Source: a virus
Taxonomy: Duplodnaviria; Heunggongvirae; Uroviricota; Caudoviricetes
Direction: 5' to 3' (one strand)
IMG/VR virus record: IMGVR_UViG_3300037400_003880
DNA: 64,000 nucleotides
Of this stretch, positions 6,512 to 62,676 are shown piece after piece. The notes beneath the pieces were generated by a model. The model made no database searches. It was not told where the DNA came from and saw only the letters and a program-made list of their open reading frames with translations. A program made the translations under genes and the position numbers. Position 1 is the first letter of the stretch. Each line of letters opens with the position of its first letter.

Positions 6512-9500
6512 TGCCAAATATAAGTTATTAGACAGAAAATAAATATATAGACTCTTATGGCGATGTTTATTATTTATTAAATACCCTAATAGGTTATGGA
6601 TTATCTCGTGCTATTATGATGATGATGAGAGAGGGCGAGAAAATCAGTGAAGATTTAAGAAGTGAACTTATTAAGAAAATTGATATTGATAATTTTCAAA
6701 TACCAGATAGTTGGAATCTTTCTGTAAAAAAGATAGAAAAAGATATTGAGGATACAGTTAACGATACTTAGCTTGGAGATATTTTTATAGGAGATATAAA
6801 AAAAGGAAATGCAGGAGTTAATTTTACAAATTGTCTGGTAGAAGAAGATACAGATGGTACAAAAAAGGTTGTAAAACCTTGGAAAAATTTTACTCATTAG
6901 ACTTATCGAGAAGTAAGAAATTATGACGCATATATCAGAAAAAATAATAAATGGAAAGAAACTCCAGAATTATTGGCGGGAGAAAACCTCGATTTTACTA
7001 ATTATTATGGAGAGAATTTTAAACAAGATCTTGAAGAAAGACTGGGCTTAAATCTTTTAATGCCGTAGTATAACAGAGTTGTATAGATAGAAGATTTAAA
7101 TAGGAATTTTTGGGTAATTAGTTAGGTTTTATCAGGATTATCTTCTTTTTTGTTTGGGCCGAGCAAGATAGGTGATATACTAAAAGAATTAATTTTAGAA
7201 ATCGCTCATTTATGGTCTAATGTTGCACTCTTATGGCTTATATCAGAAGGGGAAGATGATGCACTATTTGATACATATTATGAATTTGCTACTTTAAATA
7301 ATCAAGGCTTTATGCACATGAATTATGATTCTTATAATTCACAGTCTCTTGATGATCGAATTAGAGATTTGTTTGATGCAGTTAAAGAGTCTCATCCGCG
7401 AGGTCATATTGTTCTTTTAGTTGAAGTGCGAGACAAGCATTACTGGGAAAATTACTATGCTCAGGTTTCTTATAAGCTATGCGTATTTTCTCGTTATGAT
7501 GGTCATGAATGGATTGTTGACTTATCTTTTAATAAAGGCGATGTTACTTTAGGAGAAGATGGCACTAATGAAGGTATCTTAGCAGAAAATGAAAATGGGC
7601 GTTTAATTACAGAAGGTAATGCAACTCATAATTATTTAAGGAGTACTGAGTTTAGAAAAAATAGTTGTGCATATAGGAGAGATGGAGATAAGTATTCTTT
7701 CATTTATCCGTTTATTAGTCTTACAAATATGAAAAATGATTGGGATTATATGCTTAATTTAAGAATTGTCCCATCAATTGAATTGGTAAATTTTGTAGAC
7801 ATAAATGGTGTGCAAACTCCACAGTTAAAAATTAGCTTTTTAATAGAAGATGTTGGATATGAAATGTATTCTGGAGAAACTTCAGTAATTTATAAAGCAA
7901 CAACAACAAATGAAGTTGTTTTAATAGAAGATTCAATTACGTTAAATCTTGAAAAATAGGATTTTACTAGAATTAACCCTAATAGAGAAAAATTTTTCTC
8001 TAAAACTGGCGGCTATCGAGGAGAGAATTTAACTTGTTTCTTTCTTAACACTTTAATTGCATTAAATTTCAGTGTAGTAGAGCTTCCAATGCCAGGCTTT
8101 ACACGAACTTCTATCTAGCATATTGATAATAATGGAAATAGAGCAATTCCTATTGAGCTTGATTTTCCTAATTATATTAATGATAATGGTAATATTTTTT
8201 CAAGTGCACAAGGCGTTATAAATAGGACTAAAAATTTCTTAACTAATGTTCTTAAAAATTATGTTGATGAAGAACAAGAATCATTTCAGGAAGCTCTCAA
8301 TGAAATGCCTGATGAATTAAAAGTACAATTATTAGATGAAAACTAGAAGCTTAAGACAGAAGATGATGCTTTAGACGTTATTATTATTACTTGCAAATAT
8401 CCATATAGATTGTGGCATTACAATCAAGATGAATCTTATGAAAATATTTTTTATGATTATGACGAAGAGAATAACAAAATTTAGAAGATTAAAATTACTC
8501 ACGGCGGTCTGAAAAAGAGAGGCAATGGAAGAAAAGAAGGCGAATATGTAGTATATGATGGAGATATAGATAATGCGGGTAATGTATTAAACTACGCTAT
8601 GAGTAATCTTGGATATTACCTTCTCATTTGTAAAAAGAAAAAATCTACTAATGGCAGATATTATTATGAGTGCGCCGCCATTGAAGATTACTATTATATT
8701 TTCACCCTTCCAGAAGAGCTTATTAACTATGCTGGCGTCTATGAAGATCCCGTAAAATTAGGTATCTTTAGAAATGAAGACCCAATTCTCTTTTAGAGTC
8801 CAGATGGGAAAAATTGGATTATTAAATGGGTAAGAATTTCTGGTGGACTTATTGGTTTTCAATGGAGAGATAAAGATTTTATCTGGTATGGAAAAAACGG
8901 ATTAAGCACTAATGGTAATAATGATTCCTCACGTGACGCTTATGTTAGAAACGAAGGCTCCGTAAGAGTTCTTCAGTATAATAATGATGATGATGATATT
9001 ACCAGAGTTAATCTATTTAAAACATTTAATGATGAAGTTACAGAAGCATATCCTGATTTAGTAACTGAAGAAAAATTCAGTACTAATTTAACAGGATAGA
9101 ATAAGGAATTAAAAGGGATTATAGGAAGAGTATAGACTAATTACATAAGCTTTTCGATGTCAGAAGAAGATGAGGAAAAAGTATCTTGGTGTGCAAGAAT
9201 GTAGTCACGAAACACTGATTTGTATGAAAGATTTTATTTAGATGCGAGAGTCGATTCTCCAAATGGGATGAGAGATTTTGGGAACTATTATGAAGATTAG
9301 TGGTAGGATGTTAATAATCTTTTATGGGCACCGGGACAATCTAGATATGAATATGTAGATTAGTGTTTAAATTGGTCTGCCGGCACATTAAAAAAGACCT
9401 CTGATGAAGCTGGTAATTATAAAGATGGCGGTTGGAGATTGTTTGGAACATGGTATCTTAAAACAGGTGAGACAATGCCTGGAGAAGAGAATGATAATGC

Positions 9501-24390: not shown

Positions 24391-24826
24391 CTTTGAAAGG
24401 ATTACTGAACTGAAGAAGCAGTTAAAAGAAATAAGCGAAGAAGGAATGAGGAAAACTCAACTGCAAATTAATATACAGCAGGAGCTTAATCGTTTACAGA
24501 GAGATAGACTAACGCCACTGGTTGGGAAATTTTTTGCTTCTAAAGCCAGATATTTTATGGTAACTGATGTACCGCAAGAGATTCTTACTATGTATGGAAC
24601 TCATTTGAATAGCCATCAAATCCCTATCTATTCTCTTTGCGTTGACGAATCTGACGGAGATTATGGCGAACTGGGAGAAGAAACACTTCATTCTAATTGC
24701 ATCGAACAGGATGATATTTTTGCGGCTTTTATCGCGGAAGGGAACACTGAAATTACAAAAGAAGAGTTTCTTAATAAAGTAATGAGTGTCGTTAACGACG
24801 TTGCTGATAAGGGGAAGAAAGAATGA
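24383..24826 (+). CDS. hypothetical coiled-coil/acidic protein
   Basis: GGAGGAG ribosome-binding site, then ATG at 24383 (MNNFERITELKK). Confidence 0.5.
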   Translation: MNNFERITELKKQLKEISEEGMRKTQLQINIQQELNRLQRDRLTPLVGKFFASKARYFMVTDVPQEILTMYGTHLNSHQIPIYSLCVDESDGDYGELGEETLHSNCIEQDDIFAAFIAEGNTEITKEEFLNKVMSVVNDVADKGKKE

Positions 24827-26400
24827 GTGCGATTGTTGTAAATTTGTTTGGCGCGGCAGGTTGTGGAAAATGCTTCACAAAAGGAACTAAAGTTCTTATG
24901 TGGAATGGTGAAGTAAAAAATATTGAAGATATTTATGTTGGAGATTGGGTCATGGGAGATGACTCTAAACCAAGAGAGGTATTGGAATTACACAGAGGTA
25001 GAGCGCCGCTTTATTTATTAAAAAGAAGTTTTTCTAAAGATATTATTGTAAGTGCTAACCATATTCTATCTTTAATGAATTATCACAGGGATGGATCTTG
25101 GTCTTATGAAGATATTTCTATAGAAGATTTTCTTAATAAAAGTCTTAATTATCAGCGCAATTCAAGATTGTATAAGACATCTGTATCTTTTTCTACAGAA
25201 GCTGAAAGGAATAATCTTAAAATTGATCCGTATTACTTAGGCTATTGGCTTGGAGACGGCTTATCAGATACGATAAATCGTTTTTGTACCGCGGATGAAG
25301 AGATTATTGACTATTGTCGAGAATATGGAAGGAGAATTGGGTTGTCTCTTAAACAACATTCTTACAACGACGGGAAGTGTCAAACTTATTGTCTATCGGA
25401 GGGAAATATTGGCAATCACTCTTTCCATCCATTAAAAGGAAATATTTACAATCTTCGAAATAATAAGCATATACCAACAGAATATAAAACAACAACTTTG
25501 GAAAATAGACTTGCGCTTATTGCTGGTTTAATTGATTCTGATGGTTCTCTTAATAATACATCTTATGACTGGATAAATAAAAATAAGACTTTAGCTTTTG
25601 ATTTTTATCAGCTTGTTAATAGCTGTGGTTTAAGAGCTACAATAAGAGAATGCACAAAAAGTTGTGGAGATTTTTCTGGAACTTATTATCGAGTTAACAT
25701 AACTGGAGATTTAAAAATGATTCCAGTAAAAATAAAACGAAAAATTTGTTTGAATACTATACAGGATCCATCGAAAGTTTTAAGAGAAAGCTTTAAGGTA
25801 ATTCCCATTGGAGAAGGGGAGTATTATGGTTTTACTACTGATGGAAATCATCGTTTTGTATTAGATGACTGTACAGTAGTCCATAATTCAACTGCCGCGG
25901 CATATGTATTCTCTCAATTAAAAATGAGAGGAGTTAATTGTGAACTGGTTACTGAGTATGCGAAAGATTGTACTTGGGAAAATAGAGAGATGGTATTAAA
26001 TTGTCAAGAATATATTTTTGGAAAACAGTCTTATAGGTTAAAGCGATGCGCCGATAAGGTGGATGTAATTATTACTGACAGCCCTCTTCCTATAGGATTA
26101 TTTTACAATACTGATCCCGCATTGGATGATAATTTTAAGAATGTTGTTATGAATATTTATAATAAGTATTGTAACGTGAATTATCTTTTGACAAGAGTTG
26201 TGCCATATGACCCAGTTGGTAGGAATCAGACTCAAGAAGAAGCAGATATGATTGGGGATAAGATTCAAGATTTTCTTGATGATAATGATATTCCTTATGT
26301 TCATGGGATAGGGGATATTGATTTTTATAATCTTATCGTTAATCAAATTGTTTCAATATTAAAGCTTATAGAGGAAGAGGAAGAGGAGGCGAAAGAATGA
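24823..26400 (+). CDS. P-loop nucleotide kinase (dNMP-kinase-like) interrupted by an intein
   Basis: The Walker A motif GAAGCGK-[intein]-STAAAYV is split exactly at the K/S junction. The exteins together give about 186 aa with VIITDSP. Confidence 0.75.
   Translation: MSAIVVNLFGAAGCGKCFTKGTKVLMWNGEVKNIEDIYVGDWVMGDDSKPREVLELHRGRAPLYLLKRSFSKDIIVSANHILSLMNYHRDGSWSYEDISIEDFLNKSLNYQRNSRLYKTSVSFSTEAERNNLKIDPYYLGYWLGDGLSDTINRFCTADEEIIDYCREYGRRIGLSLKQHSYNDGKCQTYCLSEGNIGNHSFHPLKGNIYNLRNNKHIPTEYKTTTLENRLALIAGLIDSDGSLNNTSYDWINKNKTLAFDFYQLVNSCGLRATIRECTKSCGDFSGTYYRVNITGDLKMIPVKIKRKICLNTIQDPSKVLRESFKVIPIGEGEYYGFTTDGNHRFVLDDCTVVHNSTAAAYVFSQLKMRGVNCELVTEYAKDCTWENREMVLNCQEYIFGKQSYRLKRCADKVDVIITDSPLPIGLFYNTDPALDDNFKNVVMNIYNKYCNVNYLLTRVVPYDPVGRNQTQEEADMIGDKIQDFLDDNDIPYVHGIGDIDFYNLIVNQIVSILKLIEEEEEEAKE
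24871..25887 (+). mobile_element. intein (339 aa) with a LAGLIDADG homing endonuclease domain
   Basis: Begins with Cys1 (CFTKGTKVLMWNGE, Hint block A) and ends VVHN, followed by Ser+1. Two LAGLIDADG motifs are present (YLGYWLGDGL and LIAGLIDSDGSL). Confidence 0.8.
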
Positions 26401-27491
26401 GTTTTCCTGTAATGATTATCGTAGCAGTTATTATAGGCGGTTTAGCAGGAGCATTAGTTTATTTTATTACTAACAGACAGTCTGCAAAGAAGTTACCAAG
26501 AATTAACTTTAATGAGGCACAAGAAAAAGCAGTCCAAGGACTACAAAAAAAGAAGGACGCTTATGAAAAAGAGATGACTTAGGAAGCTCGATAGGAAGTC
26601 GCAGACTTTCTTAATAAGCTGAATGCAGAAAAGTGTAAGTTGTCAGATGAACTTACGGAATCTATCTGTGACCTTGAGGAGAAAAAACATTAGAATGAAA
26701 TGGCTTTAAAGCAGGCTGAACACGACTATTAGGAAAATGTTAAAGCCATGTAGAAGATTTGGCAAGAGTAGGAGAGCGCGGCGTATGAACGTAGGCGTGC
26801 AGATAATGAAAAAGTAATAGAATAGTTTGAAGCAGAAAAGAATGCCGAACTTGAGAAATTAAAGGTTAGTTATGGGCATAAAGAAAAGGGGCTGACTGAA
26901 GATTTTTTAGCATATAGCGCCGAGGTATCTATGAAAAGGGAGGCATTGACTAAGGAAATTGAAGCCTATGAAGCTCAACAGCGTGCCATAATAGAACGCT
27001 TTAAGAAAGATGAAGAGACAAGACAGTAGGTGGATTTTTATAGAATGATTTTATCAGAAAATGAAATTTTTGATATTAAAAAAATAAGAAGTATTGCTGA
27101 AGATTTACATAATCCTATTATTTTATATAAATTAATCTGGGAGAATTTTTATAAAAATAAATTTTCTGAATTAGTGGGAAGAGTTGCCGGAGATAAAAAA
27201 TGTGGAATTTATAAGATTACGAATCTTAAAAATTAGAAAAGTTATATTGGGCAGACTAGGTAGTCTTTTAAAGAGAGGTGGCGCACTCATGTAAAAAGAG
27301 GACTTAGAGCAGAGCCAACAACAAATAATAAATTATATTCATCTATGTGGGAAGACGGTGTGGAAAATTTTACTTTTGAAATAATTTGTTAGTGTTCTCC
27401 AGAGGAACTGAATGAACAAGAAAAACGCTATATTGCTTTTTATAATGCTTTGGAGTGGGGATATAATTCGACAGGGGGAAATACAAAATGA
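26397..27491 (+). CDS. membrane-anchored coiled-coil protein with C-terminal GIY-YIG nuclease domain (364 aa, about 12 in-frame TAG); could be two genes
   Basis: An N-terminal transmembrane helix is followed by a Q/E-rich coiled coil read through TAGs. The C-terminus GIYKITNLKNQKSYIGQT...RxxxH...E is a GIY-YIG motif. A GTG at 27030 or ATG at 27045 could start a separate GIY-YIG ORF. Confidence 0.5.
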
Positions 27492-42600: not shown

Positions 42601-43503
42601 ATGAATAAGGCTTCTTTTTATATGGCAGTTGGTCTGCCGGGGTCTGGCAAGTCTTACCTGTTTGAATCTGTAATCAAGAAGTTGTCTCCTGACTGTGTAT
42701 ACGTATCTTCTGATGCAATTCGGGAGGAGGTATTCGGTGACGTAAACGATCAGGAGCATAATGAGCAGGTGTTTGAGCTGATGAAGCGCCGCACCCTTGA
42801 TTCTCTGAAGGCAGGAGTGTCGGTTTATTATGACGCAACCAATGTGTCCGCAAAGCATCGTATCGGTTTCCTTAAGGGACTTTCCCATATCAAGGACATC
42901 GCACGGGTATGTGTGTTGAACACTCCGCCCGTTGAGGTTGTAAAGTTCCGTAACGCCCATCGTGAGCGCAAGGTTCCGGAATACGTTATTGACAGAATGC
43001 TGAAGTCTTTCAATGTGCCTGACTATTCTGAGGGATGGGATGTAATTCTTCGTTATGGTTCTGATGAAGACCATAATGCAATTGAGGAAATTACTTGCTC
43101 TTCTGCAAAGCTGTCTCATGATAATCCTCATCACTCTGCAACTGTTGGAGTTCATATGTTTAATGCAGCAAACTATGCTGAAAAGGAATTGAAGGCAAAT
43201 TGCGAAGTCATCGAAGCAGCCTGCTATCATGATATTGGTAAGCCTATTTGTAAAGTATTTCAGGATGCAAAGGGCGAGCCGTCTGATGTAGCTCATTACT
43301 ACAACCATGAGAATGTCGGAGCATACCTATATCTTTCTCATGCAAAGAATGACGGGGTATCCCTGTATATTGCTAACCTGATTGCTCACCATATGGATTT
43401 TTTCAAGGGTGAAAAGTATGTTGAGAAGATTCATAATCGTTTTGGAGAGGGATTCTTTCGGGATCTCCAGCTCCTTCATAAGGCTGATGTAAATGCACAC
43501 TAA
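42601..43503 (+). CDS. polynucleotide-kinase-like P-loop kinase fused to an HD phosphohydrolase domain (RNA/tRNA repair candidate)
   Basis: Walker A GLPGSGKS and DxT-like YYDATN. C-terminal HD motifs H..HDIGK..H. Confidence 0.7.
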   Translation: MNKASFYMAVGLPGSGKSYLFESVIKKLSPDCVYVSSDAIREEVFGDVNDQEHNEQVFELMKRRTLDSLKAGVSVYYDATNVSAKHRIGFLKGLSHIKDIARVCVLNTPPVEVVKFRNAHRERKVPEYVIDRMLKSFNVPDYSEGWDVILRYGSDEDHNAIEEITCSSAKLSHDNPHHSATVGVHMFNAANYAEKELKANCEVIEAACYHDIGKPICKVFQDAKGEPSDVAHYYNHENVGAYLYLSHAKNDGVSLYIANLIAHHMDFFKGEKYVEKIHNRFGEGFFRDLQLLHKADVNAH

Positions 43504-44185: not shown

Positions 44186-44372
44186 TAATTATACTGTGCC
44201 GCAATCCTATAATTTATAGGGTCGCGGCACTTTCTGAAAAAATTAGATTTTGTTAAAATTAATACTACTTATATAGGTAGAGGAATAGATAGGAAGTCAT
44301 GAGCCTATCGAAAGCGAACTCCGCGTTTTCCTCTACCTTTTATTATATTTCGGAGTAACGGAGGAAGATTTA

Positions 44373-45275
44373 ATGATTGGAAAATGGAATAACTTTTCAA
44401 AAGAAGAAATTGAAAATATTTATGCTTAGTCTAATAGTTTTATTGAAGTGGCTAAAAAGTTTGGGTATAAAAGTACAAATGGTTAGCTTAATAATAAATT
44501 AAGATTGCTAGCAAAAGACTTCGGCATTAATTATTTTCATTTAGAGCCAAATTAGAGATTAGATTTAGTTGTTGGAAATATATACGAAGGATTGCAGTAT
44601 ATAGAAGATGATAAGGATAAGAAACATTATGTGATATGTAAGTGTTTAAAATGTGGACAATAGACCAGCATTTATAAATACAATTTAGGAAAACAAAAGA
44701 CGTGCGGATGTAATAAAACTGAAAAGTTTTCAAAGACTATCCAGTTGGAGGGATGTAAAATTGGAAACTTTAAAGTAATCTCTTTAGATAAAGAACTATC
44801 TCTTTAGAAAAATAAAATTTACTGGAGTTGTAGATGCAACTTTTGTAATGGGATAAAAAGTATTGAGTCATATAGATTAAGAAATAATCCTCCCTATAGT
44901 TGCGGCTGTATCAGTCTAAATTCTAAAGGAGAATAGAAAATCGCAGATGTTTTAAGAGAAATGAATATTTCTTTCAAAAGAGAATATAGTTTTACAAATT
45001 TTTTTGACTTTATTGGACATCCTTTCCGCTTCGATTTTGCAATAGAGTTTCCTAAACTAATTTTAATTGAGTATCACGGAAAACAGCATTATGATAAAGA
45101 TTATGGCTGGGATGAATCTTATGAAGAAATAGTAAAAAGAGATAAAAAGAAATAGCAATATTGTAAAGAAAATGGCATTCCTCTTATAATTATTCCATAT
45201 ACAGATTATGATAAAATAGATACTAAGTATCTATTGAATATATTAAAAGGAGTTGATAAAAATGCCAAACGCTGA
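44373..45275 (+). CDS. Cys-repeat plus DUF559-like nuclease paralog 2 (about 300 aa, 8 TAG)
   Basis: GGAGGAAG ribosome-binding site. FRFDFAIEF..IEYHGKQHY is readable only with TAG as sense. Confidence 0.55.
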
Positions 45276-48115: not shown

Positions 48116-48190
48116 TGGGGTATCGCCAAGTGGTAAGGCACAGGACTTTGACTCCTGCATCCGTGGGTTCAAATCCCTCTACCCCAACCA
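48116..48190 (+). tRNA. tRNA-Gln (anticodon TTG), CCA encoded
   Basis: U1:A72 acceptor TGGGGTA/TACCCCA. D-arm GCCAAGTGGTAAGGC. Anticodon loop CTTTGAC. T-loop TTCAAAT. Closely resembles E. coli tRNA-Gln. Confidence 0.75.
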
Positions 48191-49292: not shown

Positions 49293-49368
49293 TTCGGTTT
49301 CGCCAAGTGGGTAAGGCAGCGGGCTCTAACCCCGCCATTCGGGGGTTCAAATCCCTCAACCGAAACCA
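49293..49368 (+). tRNA. amber suppressor tRNA (anticodon CTA) on a tRNA-Gln-like scaffold, CCA encoded
   Basis: TTCGGTT TC GCCAAGTGGGTAAGGC A GCGGG CTCTAAC CCCGC CATTC GGGGGTTCAAATCCCTC AACCGAA A CCA. U1:A72. The D-arm and T-loop are nearly identical to the tRNA-Gln at 48116. Confidence 0.8.
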
Positions 49369-49439
49369 TTCTCCTTCGCCAAGCGGTAAGGCAGCGGGCT
49401 CTAACCCCGTCAGCCAAGGTTCGAATCCTTGAGGAGAAG
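49369..49439 (+). tRNA. second amber suppressor tRNA (anticodon CTA), directly abutting the first; no CCA
   Basis: TTCTCCT TC GCCAAGCGGTAAGGC A GCGGG CTCTAAC CCCGT .. CAAGGTTCGAATCCTTG AGGAGAA G. The anticodon stem and loop are the same as copy 1. Confidence 0.75.
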
Positions 49440-49971: not shown

Positions 49972-50460
49972 AAAATTGAATGGTCGGCATTCGCTTGTGC
50001 CTTCCCCATAAGTTAAATTCAAGCCTCTACTGTGCTTATATCCCGTCTATTATGTTCGTCCGGAAGTGCGGCACATTAAATAACGCGGCGAAAAGAACAT
50101 TAGAACTCTCGTATATAGACTCAGGATAAGTGGAGCGAGACTAAATAAGTACCCGTTTGGCACGAGTTGTGCTAAATCCGAATCGTTCCTTATACTGCCA
50201 TATGAGGAGCGTCTGTGGCAGCAGTAATGAGACAGAAAGCTCTCAGAGTTGTACAGCTCAAAGCTTTCTCGCAATCCGCCGGTGTGAATGGGCGGTACCT
50301 TGTGAGTTAGTAGATGGACATAACTCTCCGTCTGGTTTGGCGTGAACGGACTGCTCAAAGGGTTCAACTCCCTTTCAATAGGATGTGCCTATTGCTACGG
50401 TTTAGGAGTTGGCACCAAGTACAAGCCTCCACGCGGCGGTGCTGGATTTGAACTAATTGT
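49972..50460 (+). ncRNA. unclassified structured non-coding region (about 490 nt) with T-loop-like AAGGGTTCAACTCCCTT and several GTCTG/CAGAC long-range complements
   Basis: No credible ORF; the track ORFs here overlap on both strands and are low-complexity. Lies between a Y-like element and a conserved promoter. No tmRNA, RNase P or group I core motifs were recognised. Confidence 0.3.
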
Positions 50461-50842: not shown

Positions 50843-50966
50843 AAGATGTGTCAGCAAAACACTTAGTTATGGCATTTTAAGCCTCAGAATGTTGGTTCGA
50901 GTCCAACCCTCTCTTTGGAGAGGTAGCTTAATTGGCAGAGCGGAGAAAAACGAAAAACACATCTTG
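50843..50966 (+). ncRNA. Y RNA-like element with permuted tRNA-like module
   Basis: 9 bp closing stem AAGATGTGT/ACACATCTT. Interior: T-arm GTTGGTTCGAGTCCAAC, acceptor 3' strand CCTCTCT, TT, acceptor 5' strand GGAGAGG, TA, D-arm GCTTAATTGGCAGAGC. Confidence 0.5.
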
Positions 50967-51190
50967 TTTTAATGCCCGAGTACCCCAATCGGCAGAGGGA
51001 GCGGACTTTGATGTATTCTATCACAAAAGTGATACTACTGAAAAGTAGAGAGTGCCCCAAGAGAAATCTTGGAAGTAGAAGATGGCTAAAACGGCGAAGG
51101 CGAATACAGAACGCCGTGCAAGGATTTTAGGCAGACGGAAAGTTTTAGATGGATTTTTGCGTGATACCACTTATAAGTGAGGTGATAGAA

Positions 51191-51697
51191 ATGCAGAAGT
51201 ACACTAAAGAGTGGTTAGAAGAGCTTTGTGCAAACAGCTTTTCTTACGCAGAGGTTTTAAGAAAAGCCGGTCGTAAGCAAGGCGGTGGAACACAAGCGAC
51301 TCTAAAAAAGAAGATTGAAGAATTTAATATTGATGTCTCTCATTTTACGGGGCAAGGGTGGAATGGTCATTCTAATACCGTTGTTGATGTAAATAGAGAG
51401 AAATATTCAATAGAAGAAATCTTCATTAAGAACAGCCCAGTTACACAAAAAGTTATGAGAGGATATGTTGAAAGGCACAATCTTCTTGAGTACAAATGTG
51501 TTAATTGTGGTTGTGATGGAAATTGGCAAGGCGGCACAATCTCATTAGAGATTGACCATATTGATGGAGATAATTCTAATAATGAATTATCAAATCTCCG
51601 TTATTTATGTCCCAATTGTCACGCTCTTACTGAAACTTATCGAGGAAAAAACAAAGCCCTGAAATCTATGTGTAGAGACTGTACACCATCAGCCTAA
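51191..51697 (+). CDS. HNH homing endonuclease
   Basis: GGTGATAGAA ribosome-binding site, then ATG at 51191. HNH motif EIDHIDGDNSNNELSNLRYLCPNCHALTE. A 33-codon ORF upstream (51082-51183) lies in a different frame. Confidence 0.75.
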   Translation: MQKYTKEWLEELCANSFSYAEVLRKAGRKQGGGTQATLKKKIEEFNIDVSHFTGQGWNGHSNTVVDVNREKYSIEEIFIKNSPVTQKVMRGYVERHNLLEYKCVNCGCDGNWQGGTISLEIDHIDGDNSNNELSNLRYLCPNCHALTETYRGKNKALKSMCRDCTPSA

Positions 51698-52393: not shown

Positions 52394-52897
52394 GTGGATA
52401 TGAAAAAGTTTCATCGTGGTAATGGAGACATTGTAACTCATGATGAAATGGTCAAGATTGCAGCTGATTATATCAGTGCTGATCCATCTCAGGAGTATGA
52501 AATTACTGTAGGGACTGATAGCCAAAACCATTCACAAACAAAAATGGTTGAAGTTATTGCTCTTCACAGAATTGGACACGGCGGCATCTTCTTCTATAGG
52601 GTTGATTATGTTCGTAAGATTAAGTCACTAAAGGAGAAGATTGTAGAAGAAACCTCGCGTTCTCTTGAGAATGCATCAGGGTTACTTGACGATGTTCAAC
52701 TTCAGTTGCTTGAAGAAGGCATTGATATTGATGACTTGAATATTCATTTCATTATTCATTGTGATATTGGTCATGAAGGAAAAACTCAGGCTTTAATTAA
52801 GGAAATTGTAAGTTGGGTTCATTCCGCAGGTTATGAATGTCAAATCAAGCCAGACAGCTATGCGGCTTCTGGTATTGCAAATAAGATTTCTAAATGA
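52394..52897 (+). CDS. hypothetical protein inside the tRNA array (H..GHGG / DIGHEG motifs; RNase-H-like fold?)
   Basis: AAAGGAGAG ribosome-binding site. Track ORF. Preceded by a structured leader with 7-8 bp helices. Confidence 0.5.
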   Translation: MDMKKFHRGNGDIVTHDEMVKIAADYISADPSQEYEITVGTDSQNHSQTKMVEVIALHRIGHGGIFFYRVDYVRKIKSLKEKIVEETSRSLENASGLLDDVQLQLLEEGIDIDDLNIHFIIHCDIGHEGKTQALIKEIVSWVHSAGYECQIKPDSYAASGIANKISK

Positions 52898-52916: not shown

Positions 52917-52994
52917 GCCGTGGTAGTCCAACTGGCAGGAGACGTTTGCCTTAGGAGCAAAACAGTATGGGTTCGAATCCCTTCTACGGCACCA
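52917..52994 (+). tRNA. class-I tRNA with anticodon TAG (Leu CUA/CUG codons), A73, CCA encoded
   Basis: Acceptor GCCGTGG/CTACGGC. Anticodon stem TTTGC/GCAAA with loop CTTAGGA. T-loop TTCGAAT. Confidence 0.55.
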
Positions 52995-53110: not shown

Positions 53111-53230
53111 AAGACTCTCCAGCAATCTGAGAAGGATTTCTTTCCAGTGTAGCCAAGTGGGTTAAGGCAGCGGCATCAAAGCCGTGATTCTCCGGTTCGA
53201 ATCCGGACTCCGGACAAAAAAAGAGTCTTG
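53111..53230 (+). ncRNA. Y RNA-like element enclosing a pseudo-tRNA (anticodon CAA, degenerate acceptor)
   Basis: 8 bp closing stem AAGACTCT/AGAGTCTT. The interior TCCAGTG TA GCCAAGTGGGTTAAGGC A GCGGC ATCAAAG GCCGT .. TCCGGTTCGAATCCGGA CTCCGGA has the Gln/Sup-like D-arm. Confidence 0.45.
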
Positions 53231-53780: not shown

Positions 53781-53854
53781 GGGGATGTGGTGCAAGTGGC
53801 AGACGCGGCTGTCTCAAAAACAGTTTTTTGTGGGTTCGAATCCCACCATCCCCA
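53781..53854 (+). tRNA. class-I tRNA with anticodon CAA (Leu UUG codon), A73
   Basis: Acceptor GGGGATG/CATCCCC. Anticodon stem GCTGT/ACAGT with loop CTCAAAA. T-arm GTGGGTTCGAATCCCAC. Confidence 0.55.
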
Positions 53855-53942
53855 CTGGCGCGCAGGTTTGATGCAATGCGACATATACAGAAATCCGTGT
53901 ACTATAGAGTATTCCTGCACAATCTATAGCGGTATTTAATTT

Positions 53943-54089
53943 AAGACACGCACAGCAAAGTTTTTTATAAATGGACAGTAAATCCGTTGGGGAAGTCCCT
54001 TCGTAGGTGCAAATCCTATCCTCGCCCACCAATATGGGTGAGTAGCCAAGTAGACAAAGGCGGCGGAACCATATGTAAAAAGTGTCTTG
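53943..54089 (+). ncRNA. Y RNA-like element with permuted tRNA-like module
   Basis: Closing stem AAGACAC/GTGTCTT. Interior: T-arm-like GTAGGTGCAAATCCTAT, acceptor 3' strand CCTCGCC plus CACCA, ATAT, acceptor 5' strand GGGTGAG, TA, D-arm GCCAAGTAGACAAAGGC. Confidence 0.45.
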
Positions 54090-54093
54090 AGAT

Positions 54094-54179
54094 GCGGAGA
54101 TGCCCGAGTGGTTGATGAGGACGGTCTGCAAAACCGTTGGCTTGCGCCCGCGTGGGTTCGAATCCCACTCTCCGCTCCA
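54094..54179 (+). tRNA. class-II (long variable arm) tRNA with anticodon GCA (Cys codons) and U73, CCA encoded
   Basis: Acceptor GCGGAGA/TCTCCGC. Tyr/Ser-like D-arm CCCGAGTGGTTGATGAGG. Anticodon stem ACGGT/ACCGT with loop CTGCAAA. 14 nt variable arm TGGCTTGCGCCCGC. T-arm GTGGGTTCGAATCCCAC. Confidence 0.55.
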
Positions 54180-54182
54180 AAT

Positions 54183-54256
54183 GCAGAATTAGTTTAATGG
54201 TAGAATTGGTGCTTCCCATGCACTTGACGCGGGTTCGATTCCCGTATTCTGCTCCA
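54183..54256 (+). tRNA. tRNA-Gly (CCC), CCA encoded
   Basis: Acceptor GCAGAAT/ATTCTGC. Anticodon loop TTCCCAT. T-arm GCGGGTTCGATTCCCGT. Confidence 0.7.
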
Positions 54257-54258
54257 GT

Positions 54259-54385
54259 AAGGTAGGTCAGCAAGAAGAACTAAAATTTTGTTCCAACTCT
54301 TATGTTGATGGTTCGAGTCCATCCTCACTCGCAAGTGTGAGTAGTTCAACTGGCAGAACAAAGGGTAAAAATTTAACCTATCTTG
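54259..54385 (+). ncRNA. Y RNA-like element with permuted tRNA-like module
   Basis: Closing stem GGTAGGT/ACCTATC with TCAGCAAG. Interior: T-arm GATGGTTCGAGTCCATC, acceptor 3' strand CTCACTC, loop GCAAGT, acceptor 5' strand GTGAGTA, D-arm GTTCAACTGGCAGAAC. Confidence 0.5.
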
Positions 54386-54642: not shown

Positions 54643-54750
54643 GCCGTTGATGATGCGGAGGTGCGCAAGTGGTCATAAGCGCATAGCCTTGAAAGCTATT
54701 GTGTCAGCTTAGTATCTGACCCGTGGGTTCGAATCCCACTCTCCGCGCCA
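54643..54750 (+). tRNA. tRNA-Ser (TGA), class II, CCA encoded
   Basis: Acceptor GCGGAGG/TCTCCGC. Anticodon stem ATAGC/GCTAT with loop CTTGAAA. 21 nt variable arm. T-arm GTGGGTTCGAATCCCAC. Confidence 0.7.
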
Positions 54751-54989: not shown

Positions 54990-56459
54990 ATGAGTAATTT
55001 TGCAAACGCTTTTGGTAGAATGGCAGACATGACTATGACCGAGAATGGTGGACGCGCTTTCAGTACTACCGGTTCAGCTTTGCTTGACCTGTTCGCTAAT
55101 ATCGGTGGCATGAGAAATCGAGACACTTCTGATGTTGTTTCTGCATGGCAGGCAGCTCGGAAGGAAGATAAGGAGCTTGCGGATAATCTGATCCTCTATG
55201 CCCGTGATATTCGTAACACTGGTCTCGGTGAGCGTAAGATTGGTCGTGCCCTCCTGAAGGCTCTCGGTGATGCTGATCCTCAGAAGGTAATCCGTAACTT
55301 TGAAACCATTGTTGCGGCAGGTCGTTGGGATGACTTGTTCATCTTTGTGGGTAACCCTGCAATTGAGAACAAGATGTGGGATTATGTTGAAGAGCAGTTC
55401 CGTGCTGATGTAAAGGGTGTAAAGCTTAACCAGCCTATCTCTTTGCTCGGTAAGTGGATGCCTTCCATTAACACCAGCTCTCAGGAGACTCGTAAGCTCG
55501 CACGTCGTGCCTGCGCGCACTTGGGTCTGACTGAGCGTACTTATCGTAAGAGCCTTAGCGCGCTTCGTAAGCATATCAACATTGTTGAGCGTCTTATGAG
55601 CGCCGGCGAGTGGGATAAGATTGACTTCGAGTCTGTACCTTCTGTAGCTATGTCTCGTTATATCAATACTTATAACAAGCGTTGTCAGGAGCGTTTTGCT
55701 GAATACAAGGCTTCCCTCGTAAAGGGTGAAGCTAAGGTTAATGCAGCAACTTTGTATCCTTATGACATTGTTATGAAGGCATTGAATAGCGGATACTACG
55801 GGAAGATGACTCTTGATGCTGTTGACGAAGCACAATGGAAGGCTCTGCCTAACTATGTGTCTGGTGAGAATGAGGTCGTTGTAATGGCGGACGTGTCTGG
55901 TTCTATGAGCTGTGACATGAATCGTCCTATGGCAACTTCTATCGGTCTTGCCACCTATTTCGCACAGAGGAACAAGGGTGCATATCACAATATGTATCTT
56001 ACCTTTACCTCTCAGCCTGCTTTCATTCATCTCAAGGATGAGTGGAGTTTGGCAGACTGCCTTAACTATGTGAAGAGTCATGGTGTAGGTTATAGCACTA
56101 ATCTGGATGCGGCTTTCGCTGCAATCTATGAGGTTGCTGTTCGCACCAATGAAGCTCCAAAGGCACTGGTTGTAATCTCTGACATGGAGATTGATAGCTG
56201 GTACTCTGGTAACTTCTGCGACTCTATCGCAAGTAAGTGGGAGAGAAAGTATGCAGCCGTTGGCTTGAAGGCTCCTAAGCTTATCCTTTGGAACGTAGAA
56301 TCTCGTGGTGGACGTGTGCTCGCACAGCAGTCTGATCGTGTAGGTTTCGTTTCTGGATATGGCGTTGGTCCTTTCGCAAACTTGACCTCTCTTATCGACA
56401 AGAGTGCTTACGAGGCAATGAAGGAAATTCTTTCTAAGCCTGCATTCCAGTGGAAGTAA
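54990..56459 (+). CDS. Ro60/TROVE-like protein with C-terminal vWA domain (Rsr-like, DUF2828-type; tentative)
   Basis: AAAAGGAGAAA ribosome-binding site. An N-terminal alpha-helical region of about 290 aa is followed by a vWA MIDAS motif VVVMADVSGSMS and LVVISDMEID. Lies directly downstream of the Y RNA-like/tRNA array. Confidence 0.55.
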   Translation: MSNFANAFGRMADMTMTENGGRAFSTTGSALLDLFANIGGMRNRDTSDVVSAWQAARKEDKELADNLILYARDIRNTGLGERKIGRALLKALGDADPQKVIRNFETIVAAGRWDDLFIFVGNPAIENKMWDYVEEQFRADVKGVKLNQPISLLGKWMPSINTSSQETRKLARRACAHLGLTERTYRKSLSALRKHINIVERLMSAGEWDKIDFESVPSVAMSRYINTYNKRCQERFAEYKASLVKGEAKVNAATLYPYDIVMKALNSGYYGKMTLDAVDEAQWKALPNYVSGENEVVVMADVSGSMSCDMNRPMATSIGLATYFAQRNKGAYHNMYLTFTSQPAFIHLKDEWSLADCLNYVKSHGVGYSTNLDAAFAAIYEVAVRTNEAPKALVVISDMEIDSWYSGNFCDSIASKWERKYAAVGLKAPKLILWNVESRGGRVLAQQSDRVGFVSGYGVGPFANLTSLIDKSAYEAMKEILSKPAFQWK

Positions 56460-59978: not shown

Positions 59979-60914
59979 ATGAAGCATTATGTAGATATTG
60001 AGCGTTTTAAGGTAAAGTACGACGAGTGCATGCGCGCCGGTGACGAGATTGTCGTACAAGAGAAGATTGATGGAGCCAATGCATCTTTTACTTACGATCC
60101 CGCACAGGATAAGGTTCTGGCTTTTTCTCGTAAGAATGAGCTGAATGAGGCAAATAATCTCCGTGGTTTCTGGGATTGGACTCAGCGTCTTGACAAGAAG
60201 GGTGTCGCTCATATGACTCAGAATGGTCGCTATGTAATTTTCGGCGAGTGGCTTGTAAAGCATACTGTTCGTTATCCTGAGCATGAGTATAATCATTTCT
60301 GGATGTTCGATGTATGGGATACGCAGGACGAGAAGTGGCTTCACTATGATGATGTTCGTGCAATTCATGCGGGACTTTTGAGTGTAGCCCAGCTCACGCA
60401 GGAGGTTATTAACTTCGTCCCTGTATTCTATGACGGTCCGTTCATTTCTTGGGATCACCTTTACCAGATGGTTGGACGTACTGACGTAAATGCGGAGCCT
60501 TGCGGCGAGGGCATCGTAATTAAGAACCAGAACACTATTGACATTCCGGAGTGGCGCCTGCCTACCTATGTCAAGATTGTATCGGAGAAGTTCTCTGAGG
60601 TTCACGTTGGTCATGCTAAGAAGCTCATTGATCCTGCTGTTCTTGCAGCTCGTGAGGCAGAGCGTCAGATGGTTGCGACTGTAGTTACCGAGCGCCGTGT
60701 AGCTAAAATATTGGAAAAGTTTGTAGATAATGGTATACTTCCAGAAGACTGGGACGAAAAAAATATGAAGGATGTTGCTAAGAATCTCCCTAAAGCAGTT
60801 TATGAGGATTGTATAAAAGAAGAACCAGATATTGTAAAAGCGTGTGAAGACTTTGGAAAAATATGTGGTAAGATTTCTATGGATTATGTTCGTCAATTTC
60901 TTTCTGCTCGATAA
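59979..60914 (+). CDS. ATP-dependent RNA ligase (Rnl2-like nucleotidyltransferase)
   Basis: Motif I EKIDGAN (adenylated lysine), motif IV EGIVIKNQ, motif V KIVSEKF. Size about 311 aa. GAGAGGAGAA ribosome-binding site. Confidence 0.7.
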   Translation: MKHYVDIERFKVKYDECMRAGDEIVVQEKIDGANASFTYDPAQDKVLAFSRKNELNEANNLRGFWDWTQRLDKKGVAHMTQNGRYVIFGEWLVKHTVRYPEHEYNHFWMFDVWDTQDEKWLHYDDVRAIHAGLLSVAQLTQEVINFVPVFYDGPFISWDHLYQMVGRTDVNAEPCGEGIVIKNQNTIDIPEWRLPTYVKIVSEKFSEVHVGHAKKLIDPAVLAAREAERQMVATVVTERRVAKILEKFVDNGILPEDWDEKNMKDVAKNLPKAVYEDCIKEEPDIVKACEDFGKICGKISMDYVRQFLSAR

Positions 60915-60969: not shown

Positions 60970-61884
60970 ATGGGAAAGTTCATTGATTTAACTGGATAGA
61001 AATTTGGACGATTAACTGTCTTAGAAAAAGATATGGAAAGAAGTAAAAATACAACTTATTGGAAATGTATCTGTGAATGTGGAAAAGAATTTTCCACAAG
61101 AGGAACTTCATTAAGAAATGGAAAAACAACTTCTTGTGGTTGTGCGCGAATCGAAAAAGTCAAAGAATCATTAACGATAGATTTAACAGGACAAGTTTTT
61201 GAAAATTTAACTGTAATTAAACAAGTTCAAACAGAAGAAAAAGGTGCTCATTGGTTATGTTCTTGTAAATGTGGAAATACAATTATTGTTAATGGAAGTG
61301 ACCTGCGTGCTGGCGTAGTAAAATCTTGTGGATGCTTATCAGGAAAATTGCAAAGTGCGTCTTTATGCAAAAAATTAGACGGACTAACTTTTGGAAAATG
61401 GCGCGTTATAGAAAGAGACCTAAAATAGATAGGAGACGGCGCAAGATGGATTTGCCAATGTCAATGTGGACAAATAAGAAGTGTTGCAGCAAGCAGTTTA
61501 ATTTCTGGAAGAAGCTTGTCTTGTGGTTGTTTACATTCCGCAGGGGAGTATAAAATTTCATGTCTATTAAATAAAAACAATATTCACTATGAAAAAGAAT
61601 ATATCTTTCCAGATTTGGTCGGAAATAAGTTGCCTTTAAGATTTGATTTCGCAATAAAAAATGACAATGATGAAGTCATCTGCTTAGTTGAATTTTAGGG
61701 CGAACAGCATTATAAATATTCTGATTACTTTGAAAAAAAACAAAGCTTCGAAGATCGCCAGAGATATGACCAGATGAAGCGAGATTATTGTCAAAGAAAA
61801 AATCTTTTGTTAATTGAAGTCCCATATTGGGATTATGAGAAATTAAATGATGATTATGTAAAGGAGTGGCTGAAGTCTCGATGA
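60970..61884 (+). CDS. Cys-repeat plus DUF559-like nuclease paralog 3 (304 aa, 3 TAG)
   Basis: AGGAGGTGA ribosome-binding site. LTGQKFGRLTV..W.C.C.CG..CGC repeats. LRFDFAI..VEF-TAG-GEQHY..RQRYDQMKRDYC..LLIEVPY. Confidence 0.55.
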
Positions 61885-62160: not shown

Positions 62161-62676
62161 ATGAGAAACTTACTTGTTGTCGTAGATATGCAGAATGATT
62201 TCATTACCGGCGCCCTGGCTAATCCAGAGGGGCAGAAGATTGTCGGGAAGATTGCGGATTTTATTTATGATTTTCCCGGAGGAGTTGTATATACCGCAGA
62301 CACCCATTATGATAATTATTTGGAAACTCAAGAAGGAAAGCGGCTTCCTATCTCTCATTGTATTGAAGGGTCTGAAGGATGGAGAATTGTTCCAGAAATT
62401 GAAAGAGCCCTTGAAGCTCGAGATGCAGCCCAGTTTATTAAGCATTCTTTCGGCAGCAGAGAACTCGCAAAATTTGTTCAGTATCATTTTTATGATGAAG
62501 TATATTTTGTCGGGGTTTGTACAGATATTTGCGTAATTTCTAATGCAATGCTTTGCAAGGCGTTTGCTCCTGAAATAAGGATTGTTGTGCTGAAGGATAT
62601 GTGTGCTGGCGTAACACCAGAAAGCCATGAGACTGCACTTAAGGCGATGCAGGCTTGTCAGATTGATGTTGAGTAA
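62161..62676 (+). CDS. pncA: nicotinamidase (isochorismatase-family cysteine hydrolase)
   Basis: VVVDMQNDF, catalytic Cys in VGVCTDICV, Lys/Asp triad context. Confidence 0.75.
   Translation: MRNLLVVVDMQNDFITGALANPEGQKIVGKIADFIYDFPGGVVYTADTHYDNYLETQEGKRLPISHCIEGSEGWRIVPEIERALEARDAAQFIKHSFGSRELAKFVQYHFYDEVYFVGVCTDICVISNAMLCKAFAPEIRIVVLKDMCAGVTPESHETALKAMQACQIDVE

Follow-up and report, generated by a model that had tools for sequence, protein, structure and literature searches.

A phage transfer RNA with the cysteine anticodon GCA, discriminator U73 and a tyrosine-type extra arm

In the textbook view the extra arm of class-II transfer RNAs (tRNAs) is reserved for leucine, serine, bacterial tyrosine and selenocysteine (Sec) tRNAs. 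A published exception is the selC* tRNA-Cys, which has a long variable arm, U73 and a GCA or UCA anticodon and accepts Cys and serves in translation (Mukai et al. 2017, NAR 45:2776, PMC5389517), showing that cysteinyl-tRNA synthetase (CysRS) can accept a tRNA with an extra arm. The extra arm is also uncoupled from the Leu/Ser/Tyr anticodon set in allo-tRNAs and nematode nev-tRNAs (PMC5389517, PMC3333845), but these keep Ser or Leu identity and are missense tRNAs. Here we analyse a tRNA gene in a 64,000-nucleotide (nt) stretch of Caudoviricetes DNA (IMG/VR record IMGVR_UViG_3300037400_003880; hereafter the window), which is part of a phage genome, and this tRNA carries the identity set of its own anticodon's amino acid, cysteine. 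A preliminary description had reported a class-II-like tRNA with a 14-nt variable arm, anticodon GCA and U73, and had called the combination unusual on the ground that Cys tRNAs are class I. The features are borne out by ARAGORN, by the Rfam alignment and by the sequence, and the combination is indeed unusual, although selC* tRNA-Cys contradicts the general rule from which the argument had started.

The gene (Table 1) is a real tRNA gene with GCA at positions 34-36, a class-II-like arm of 14 nt and U73. ARAGORN reported a tRNA(GCA) on exactly 54094-54179 of the plus strand, with the anticodon from sequence position 35, and drew a 7/5 cloverleaf with a D stem of 3-4 base pairs (bp) and an anticodon stem of 5(+1) bp. 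Rfam RF00005 matched 54094-54176 over the full model (1-71) at 50.4 bits, above the gathering score of 29 (E = 7.6e-8 window-wide), with the 7-bp acceptor stem and 5-bp T stem of the family, a score that is mid-range among the tRNAs of the surrounding array (35.9-65.2 bits). The anticodon loop in the Rfam alignment is CUGCAAA, which places GCA at 34-36. It had been suggested that re-folding or a re-check of the sequence might put a different triplet there; no fold does so, and a Logan assembly of run SRR12668996 (contig L204), whose independence from the source of the window is uncertain, has 100% identity over 53940-54200. As read from the sequence the conserved core is intact (U8, A14, G18G19, U33, T loop UUCGAAU, R15:Y48). 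All helices are perfect except the D stem, where Rfam and ARAGORN each mark a mismatch, C11.A24. The next tRNA, Gly(CCC), begins 3 nt past the CCA end, and a promoter and terminator scan around the gene gave nothing above shuffled expectation.

Table 1. Coordinates of the Cys tRNA gene, its parts and other features of the window
Feature	Position	Strand	Basis
Cys tRNA, whole gene, anticodon GCA, encoded CCA, 86 nt	54094-54179	+	ARAGORN; Rfam RF00005; identical in L204
Acceptor stem, 5' strand GCGGAGA (G1:C72, C2:G71, G3:C70)	54094-54100	+	Sequence, ARAGORN
D arm CCCG-AGUGGUUGA-UGAG, G15 and G18G19 kept, C11.A24 mismatch	54103-54119	+	Rfam, ARAGORN
Anticodon arm ACGGU-CUGCAAA-ACCGU, with U33 and A37A38	54121-54137	+	Sequence, Rfam alignment
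Anticodon GCA, reading UGC/UGU	54128-54130	+	ARAGORN, Rfam alignment
Variable region UGGCUUGCGCCCGC, 14 nt: U44 unpaired, 3-bp stem GGC/GCC, loop UUGC, CGC unpaired ending in C48	54138-54151	+	
T arm GUGGGUUCGAAUCCCAC	54152-54168	+	Sequence
Acceptor stem, 3' strand UCUCCGC	54169-54175	+	Sequence
Discriminator U73	54176	+	
CCA end, encoded	54177-54179	+	
tRNA-Gly(CCC), start	54183		
tRNA-Ser(UGA), 96 nt, 23-nt variable region, G73	54655-54750	+	ARAGORN, comparison with Cys tRNA
tRNA-Gln(UUG)	at 48116		
Tandem CUA-anticodon tRNAs	49293-49368; 49369-49439		
tRNA-Leu AAG; UAG; CAA	52130-52206; 52917-52994; 53781-53855		
tRNA-like gene with apparent 6-nt anticodon loop	53143-53215		Rfam, ARAGORN
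tRNA-like units, YrlA matches	50863-50973; 54299-54363		Rfam YrlA, relaxed scan
tRNA-like unit directly upstream of Cys tRNA	53966-54075		
Further tRNA-like unit	about 50358-50416		
RNA ligase	59979-60914		PF09414, phrog_548
P-loop kinase and HD protein (polynucleotide-kinase-like)	42601-43503		
DUF2828 RNA-binding protein	54990-56459		phrog_850
RNaseH-like protein	52394-52897		
Hint/LAGLIDADG intein-like open reading frame	24823-26400		
HNH endonuclease inside tRNA array	51200-51697		
GIY-YIG endonuclease	26397-27491		
TGC codon for Cys124 of nicotinamidase	62530-62532	+	Alignment to P. horikoshii PncA (1ILW)
Nicotinamidase/isochorismatase and nicotinate phosphoribosyltransferase pair	62161-63905		
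Proteins with Cys-rich repeats	60970-61884; 44250-45275		

In the way it would work, this molecule resembles tRNA-Cys and selC* tRNA-Cys, but by structure it falls outside the definitions of selC* tRNA-Cys, of allo-tRNAs and of canonical class-I tRNA-Cys. With selC* tRNA-Cys it has in common a variable arm beyond class I, U73 and the GCA anticodon. The selC* tRNAs, however, are mimics of tRNA-Sec, about 90-100 nt in size with an 8/4-type branch, longer anticodon and D stems and long variable stems, and their genes adjoin selB*/cysS* in anaerobic bacteria, whereas the phage molecule, encoded in a phage tRNA array, is an ordinary cloverleaf of 7/5 form, has a Tyr-type arm of 3 bp and shows neither the 8/4-type branch nor the extended stems. 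It also differs in its 7/5 form from the allo-tRNAs, which combine 8/4 or 9/3 branches with Ser identity. Canonical class-I tRNA-Cys of bacteria and phages resembles it in GCA, U73, G1:C72 and the D arm UGCCCGAG, and a 75-nt gut-phage tRNA-Cys (L001:41-115) matches the window copy base for base in the anticodon and T arms; what differs is the structured 14-nt region with its 3-bp helix in place of a 4-5-nt variable loop, and a longer D loop. Since ordinary 75-nt class-I gut-phage tRNA-Cys have the same D arm, this arm is not diagnostic of Tyr or Ser kinship, as it had been taken to be. Bacterial tRNA-Tyr has the same kind of variable arm (1 unpaired base, 3 bp, a 3-4-nt loop, 3 unpaired bases) and the same D-arm type, but the phage tRNA has C35 for U35 and U73 for A73, so that both major determinants of tyrosyl-tRNA synthetase (TyrRS) are lost.

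We consider it probable, on the evidence of its identity elements, that the gene encodes a phage tRNA-Cys isoacceptor for UGC/UGU which would be charged by the host CysRS via U73 and GCA, its extra arm being both tolerated and structurally maintained. The major Cys determinants are U73 and GCA, and minihelices gain Cys identity from U73 alone (PMC9976931); in the phage tRNA the anticodon and U73 would be the dominant determinants, together with G1:C72, and the Tyr-type arm would be tolerated by CysRS. When unique tRNAs from phage loci were tabulated, U73 was present in 12/12 long and 33/33 short GCA tRNAs. The discriminator was A73 in 17/17 tRNA-Tyr (18/18 in a slightly different set) and in 49 of the 50 tRNA-Leu, and among 44 tRNA-Ser it was G73 in 32 and U73 in 9. 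As A73 is critical for both Tyr and Leu identity, and U35 for Tyr (PMC9976931), U73 excludes these two identities. It could still be argued that the molecule is a derivative of tRNA-Tyr charged by TyrRS, which would put Tyr at Cys codons, or else that leucyl-tRNA synthetase (LeuRS) charges it: arm geometry and D arm are Tyr-like, and the body of a comparable Chryseobacterium tRNA is nearly that of a tRNA-Tyr. With A73 and U35 both changed, and with A73, crucial also for Leu, absent, such charging is extremely improbable.

Charging by seryl-tRNA synthetase (SerRS) needs more careful weighing. For SerRS the anticodon is irrelevant and the variable arm is the main recognition element (PMC9976931), and natural Ser-type tRNAs with non-Ser anticodons exist. 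Besides the allo-tRNAs (PMC5389517) there is a 94-nt GCA tRNA in an Acidobacteriaceae metagenome-assembled genome (L190:3023-3116) with a Ser-type acceptor GGAGAGU, G73 and a variable arm of ~24 nt; this is how a true Ser-identity tRNA for Cys codons would look, and it may be an allo-tRNA-like missense tRNA. In the phage, SerRS would act through the extra arm and a Ser-type acceptor helix, and Ser would be inserted at UGC/UGU partly or alongside Cys. Long-arm Cys tRNAs aside, the sequences closest to the phage molecule are phage tRNA-Ser(UGA), and it agrees with the window's own tRNA-Ser(UGA) in the T arm (17/17), the acceptor 3' strand (7/7, together 24/24), the CCA end and 6/7 bases of the acceptor 5' strand. 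Yet in the 28-nt stretch from T arm to CCA the only difference is the discriminator N73, U in one and G in the other, as expected if selection separates the two identities. The arm also speaks against Ser: in phage tRNA-Ser (42 distinct arms) it usually measures 16-23 nt, with a stem of 4-7 bp and 1-2 bases left unpaired on the 3' side, whereas in the Cys tRNA it measures 14 nt, with a 3-bp stem and 3 unpaired bases on that side, an arrangement (1, 3, 4, 3) which is that of phage tRNA-Tyr and is modal for extra-arm Cys tRNAs. Phage tRNA-Ser acceptor stems have G2:C71 in 39/44 and A3:U70 in 32/44. From the Ser-type set of G73, G1:C72 and G2:C71 the Cys tRNA has only G1:C72, with U73 and C2:G71 at the other places; C2:G71 is found likewise in the window's tRNA-Ser(UGA). 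In the long-arm family the stems are tRNA-Cys-like, with C3:G70 in 9/12 and G2:C71 in only 1/12, and the full set of CysRS determinants is conserved although the acceptor stems are otherwise divergent.

The phage itself needs Cys at UGY codons, which make up 1.9% of its codons. In its nicotinamidase, Cys124 has the codon TGC and corresponds, in the alignment with P. horikoshii PncA (1ILW), to the Cys in GVATEYCV, a residue that we take to be catalytic, and the Cys residues among the zinc ligands CxxC...CxxH of the HNH nuclease inside the tRNA array are all encoded by TGT. Because catalytic and zinc-binding Cys are encoded in this way, a Ser-inserting tRNA would damage the phage's own proteins. 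Missense or dual identity of the tRNA is therefore quite unlikely in our view. The preliminary description had named SerRS and CysRS side by side as possible charging enzymes; the second is favoured by the retention of U73, GCA and G1:C72 in a covarying family, and the first, with its missense decoding, is disfavoured by the Tyr-sized arm and by the phage's Cys codons. A special form of Ser decoding, in which whole or partial charging by SerRS deliberately places Ser at UGC/UGU as ambiguous sense decoding in a phage that has reassigned TAG (see below), is very unlikely.

The extra-arm GCA tRNA is not confined to the window. A pattern in which a long spacer separates the anticodon arm from the T loop, scanned over IMG/VR, returned 17 contigs with an 82-89-nt GCA tRNA, each within a tRNA array, and with a short spacer it returned 62 contigs with an ordinary tRNA-Cys of 75-78 nt. 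A metagenome scan added one further extra-arm member (contig L205), and the GenBank gut-phage contig L001 has both a class-I tRNA-Cys and an 86-nt GCA tRNA with a 5-bp arm. In a bacterial scan at one genome per species, 7/5 extra-arm GCA/U73 tRNAs were found in Chryseobacterium (5 assemblies), Longimicrobium, Bacteroidales, Saccharibacteria, Nomurabacteria and Mollicutes, mostly in multi-tRNA arrays; Asanoa (2) has a distinct 86-nt GCA form that ARAGORN draws as 8/4. The bulk of the bacterial matches were Sec-like molecules of 90-100 nt, resembling the published tRNA-Sec(GCA) (Rubrivivax-type) and the selC* tRNA-Cys (Nitrospirota). BLAST of the window tRNA and the family consensus against 50,697 GenBank phage records gave no long-arm homologue, only class-I tRNA-Cys of uncultured gut phages and the tRNA-Tyr of Acinetobacter phage BS46. 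We found no account of a 7/5 extra-arm tRNA-Cys in phages in the literature, of which our coverage was incomplete, so that this absence is not proof of novelty.

Alignment of 12 distinct extra-arm family sequences (alignment A3) bears out the structure. Over the cloverleaf and extra arm 99.3% of pair cells are paired, and compensatory double changes occur at 16/23 pairs, a level reached by 0/500 shuffles. All three pairs of the extra-arm stem covary and are 100% paired, the first of them being GC, UA or AU. From the pairing, the compensatory changes and the covariation of the arm's own pairs it follows that the extra arm is real and maintained. Invariant positions are G1:C72 (12/12), U8, A14, G15, C48 and U73, and the anticodon-arm bases CGGUCUGCAAAACCG are identical in all members but one. 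The extra arm is anchored like a class-II arm, for G15 and C48 are both kept and C48 can pair with G15. Taken together the extra-arm GCA tRNAs form several unrelated sequence groups (the A3 group; contigs L001/L075; contigs L019/L159; Chryseobacterium; Asanoa). To judge from the sequences the design seems to have arisen repeatedly, which is plausible because the set of Cys identity elements is so small.

A number of observations weigh against charging of this tRNA by CysRS, or against its being a fully functional molecule. The nine phage tRNA-Ser with U73 mean that U73 is not a strict anti-determinant for SerRS and is insufficient on its own to exclude Ser. An extra arm could also distort the 15:48 core, whose shape is recognised by CysRS of the E. 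coli type (PMC9976931). The acceptor stem of the window copy is that of the phage's own tRNA-Ser(UGA), without the C3:G70 of the family, and conservation of the anticodon arm and T loop among the relatives is due to ascertainment, since the search pattern was fixed on these parts. C11.A24 is the sole non-pair at 11:24 among the 12 relatives and is unique to the window copy. Folded as naked RNA, the sequence has its minimum free energy (MFE) in a non-cloverleaf structure, at -32.3 against -25.7 kcal/mol for the cloverleaf, and this gap of 6.6 exceeds that of most relatives. Finally, the nearest relative phage (contig L020, with 64% amino-acid identity in a neighbouring gene) has a syntenic array without a GCA tRNA, so the Cys gene is dispensable.

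Some of these points would suit a gene in decay or without a role in translation, that is, a recent chimera with a Cys bottom and a Ser top which is poorly folded or uncharged, and is neutral, a decoy for nucleases that attack tRNAs or a substrate of the phage's RNA-binding and RNA-repair proteins. Besides the mismatch, the stable alternative fold and the absence from the L020 array, this idea can draw on the YrlA-like tRNA-like modules and the tRNA with a 6-nt anticodon loop in the same array, and a non-translational role on the RNA ligase, kinase/HD protein and RNA-binding protein that the phage encodes. However, functional tRNAs often have one C.A mismatch. The other helices are perfect, the Rfam score is unremarkable for the array, and U8, A14, G15, G18G19, U33, the T-loop consensus, C48 and CCA are all intact. 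Thermodynamic folding (z = -0.98 for the MFE of the single sequence) is uninformative and serves as a caveat only, because relatives with perfect cloverleaves give a similar but smaller gap. We regard decay or a non-translational role as unlikely, and a cysteine tRNA charged by CysRS as the better account of the gene.

As to its origin, the arrays of Chryseobacterium offer what appears from sequence comparison to be a clear example of a tRNA-Tyr body that was converted to accept Cys. There the extra-arm Cys gene and an adjacent tRNA-Tyr are almost identical over positions 8-48, which include the D arm, anticodon stem and variable arm, and differ in the middle anticodon base, the acceptor/T half and N73. 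The tRNA-Tyr of the cultured Acinetobacter phage BS46 also has its D arm and CAC(AC) arm tail in common with the family. In the window the D arm, anticodon arm and variable arm of the Cys tRNA belong to the extra-arm Cys family, and the acceptor/T half is the one it has in common with tRNA-Ser(UGA). This sharing is recent, since the acceptor of tRNA-Ser(UGA) differs in L020, where the Cys gene is lacking. We infer a half-gene exchange or conversion in the window, with selection holding N73 apart, and this fits a role of N73 in distinguishing Cys from Ser identity where two tRNAs share one acceptor helix. In general terms, a class-II (Tyr/Ser-like) body would become a Cys acceptor by changes of the anticodon and N73, genes of tRNA arrays would swap halves, and the extra arm would owe its presence to this mode of array evolution.

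Uncoupling of architecture and identity extends beyond cysteine. Arms of 13-16 nt and of the 3-bp type, often CAC-ended, were found on phage tRNAs whose anticodons are those of Asn(GUU), Thr(UGU), Trp(CCA), Lys(UUU) and Ile(GAU) (contigs L003, L004, L007, L010, L011, L013, L025, L030, L044, L056 and L072), and the arm UGC-GAAA-GCA-CAC is shared by a Cys tRNA (L007) and a Trp tRNA (L030). At least the armed Asn (G73) and Thr (U73) tRNAs keep the discriminator of their short-armed counterparts. The converse is seen in tRNA-Leu: many arrays contain class-I-length tRNA-Leu with A73, and the window is one of them, with three tRNA-Leu genes of 75-78 nt that have a 5-nt variable loop and class-I architecture and retain A73 and Leu-type D loops. 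Leu tRNAs of 75 nt likewise occur in the Chryseobacterium and Asanoa arrays that bear extra-arm Cys tRNAs. For the LeuRS of E. coli the arm is dispensable (PMC9976931). The tRNAs of such arrays thus appear to uncouple class I/II architecture from amino-acid identity. It is conceivable, if doubtful, that the Tyr-type arm is an adaptive tag by which phage tRNAs escape host tRNA-directed nucleases or are recognised and handled by the phage's own RNA-binding and RNA-repair proteins. A report on anti-phage Septu indicates that it cleaves the variable loop of tRNA-Tyr, so that extra arms are known nuclease targets (PMC13096335).

All genes of the window are on the plus strand, and an array of about 20 tRNA genes (19 by ARAGORN, 20 by Rfam) lies at 48.1-54.8 kb. 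Treating TAG as a sense codon raises plus-strand coverage by open reading frames from 29 kb to 48 kb, with up to 17 in-frame TAGs per gene, and TAG is read as sense in this phage. Because the two tandem CUA-anticodon tRNAs have a D arm (UCGCCAAGUGG.UAAGGC) in common with the tRNA-Gln(UUG) of the array, it is suggested that TAG encodes Gln. The RNA ligase, the kinase/HD protein, the RNA-binding protein and the RNaseH-like protein form an RNA-handling gene set around the array that fits tRNA repair against host anticodon nucleases. The sequence of the neighbouring DUF2828 protein had no match in the PDB. Mobile endonucleases of three kinds are also encoded (Table 1). Elsewhere in the window the nicotinamidase/isochorismatase adjoins a nicotinate phosphoribosyltransferase as a nicotinamide adenine dinucleotide (NAD)-salvage pair. 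Two other proteins contain repeated W-x-C-x-C-x-C-G...S-C-G-C modules, three of them in the protein at 60970-61884, together with a shared C-terminal domain; the repeats of both are unusually Cys-rich and zinc-ribbon-like.

Within the array, the tRNA-like gene at 53143-53215 scores 41.4 bits in Rfam and has an apparent 6-nt anticodon loop, a 2-nt 'anticodon' in ARAGORN and 5/7 acceptor pairs, and is possibly a degenerate tRNA or one of non-standard type. The array also holds tRNA-like units in which a T arm is followed by an acceptor-like hairpin with a 4-8-nt closing loop and then a D arm, an order that gives them the look of circularly permuted tRNAs. Four were found, against 0.08 expected in shuffles. 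In a relaxed scan two of them matched Rfam YrlA, whose members resemble Y RNAs and include a tRNA-like domain (50863-50973 at 35.9 bits, E = 4e-5; 54299-54363 at 33.1 bits, E = 3e-4), both short of the gathering score, which is 69. The unit directly upstream of the Cys tRNA has a GUA-containing bulge, a Tyr-type variable arm and ACCA, and gave no YrlA match; the idea that 53972-54068 is a circularly permuted or split tRNA-Tyr linked to the Cys gene was dropped, as similar units match YrlA and point to Y-RNA-like modules. The DUF2828/phrog_850 protein encoded just downstream of the array could, we infer, be the protein partner of the YrlA-like units. A motif UCUUGAnnAU abuts the 5' ends of several tRNAs, namely Cys in the window (54082-54093) and Phe and Ser(UGA) in L020, and also follows YrlA-like units (sites at ~54362-54371 in the window and at ~8400-8415 and 8727-8739 in L020); it may be a processing or promoter signal.

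What the window adds to the described systems is a plain 7/5 tRNA with the full cysteine identity set and a Tyr-type arm supported by covariation, in a design that recurs in many phage and mobile tRNA arrays. For annotation it is relevant that isotype callers may flag extra-arm Cys genes as mismatched or as pseudogenes. If charging by CysRS is true, such genes would offer ready scaffolds for the engineering of orthogonal or arm-tagged tRNAs. They would also form a natural series of identity change, in which Tyr becomes Cys by changes at 35 and 73, and Ser and Cys differ only at N73 in a shared acceptor/T half. Cysteine identity, in the form of U73 and GCA, would then be portable onto class-II bodies in nature.

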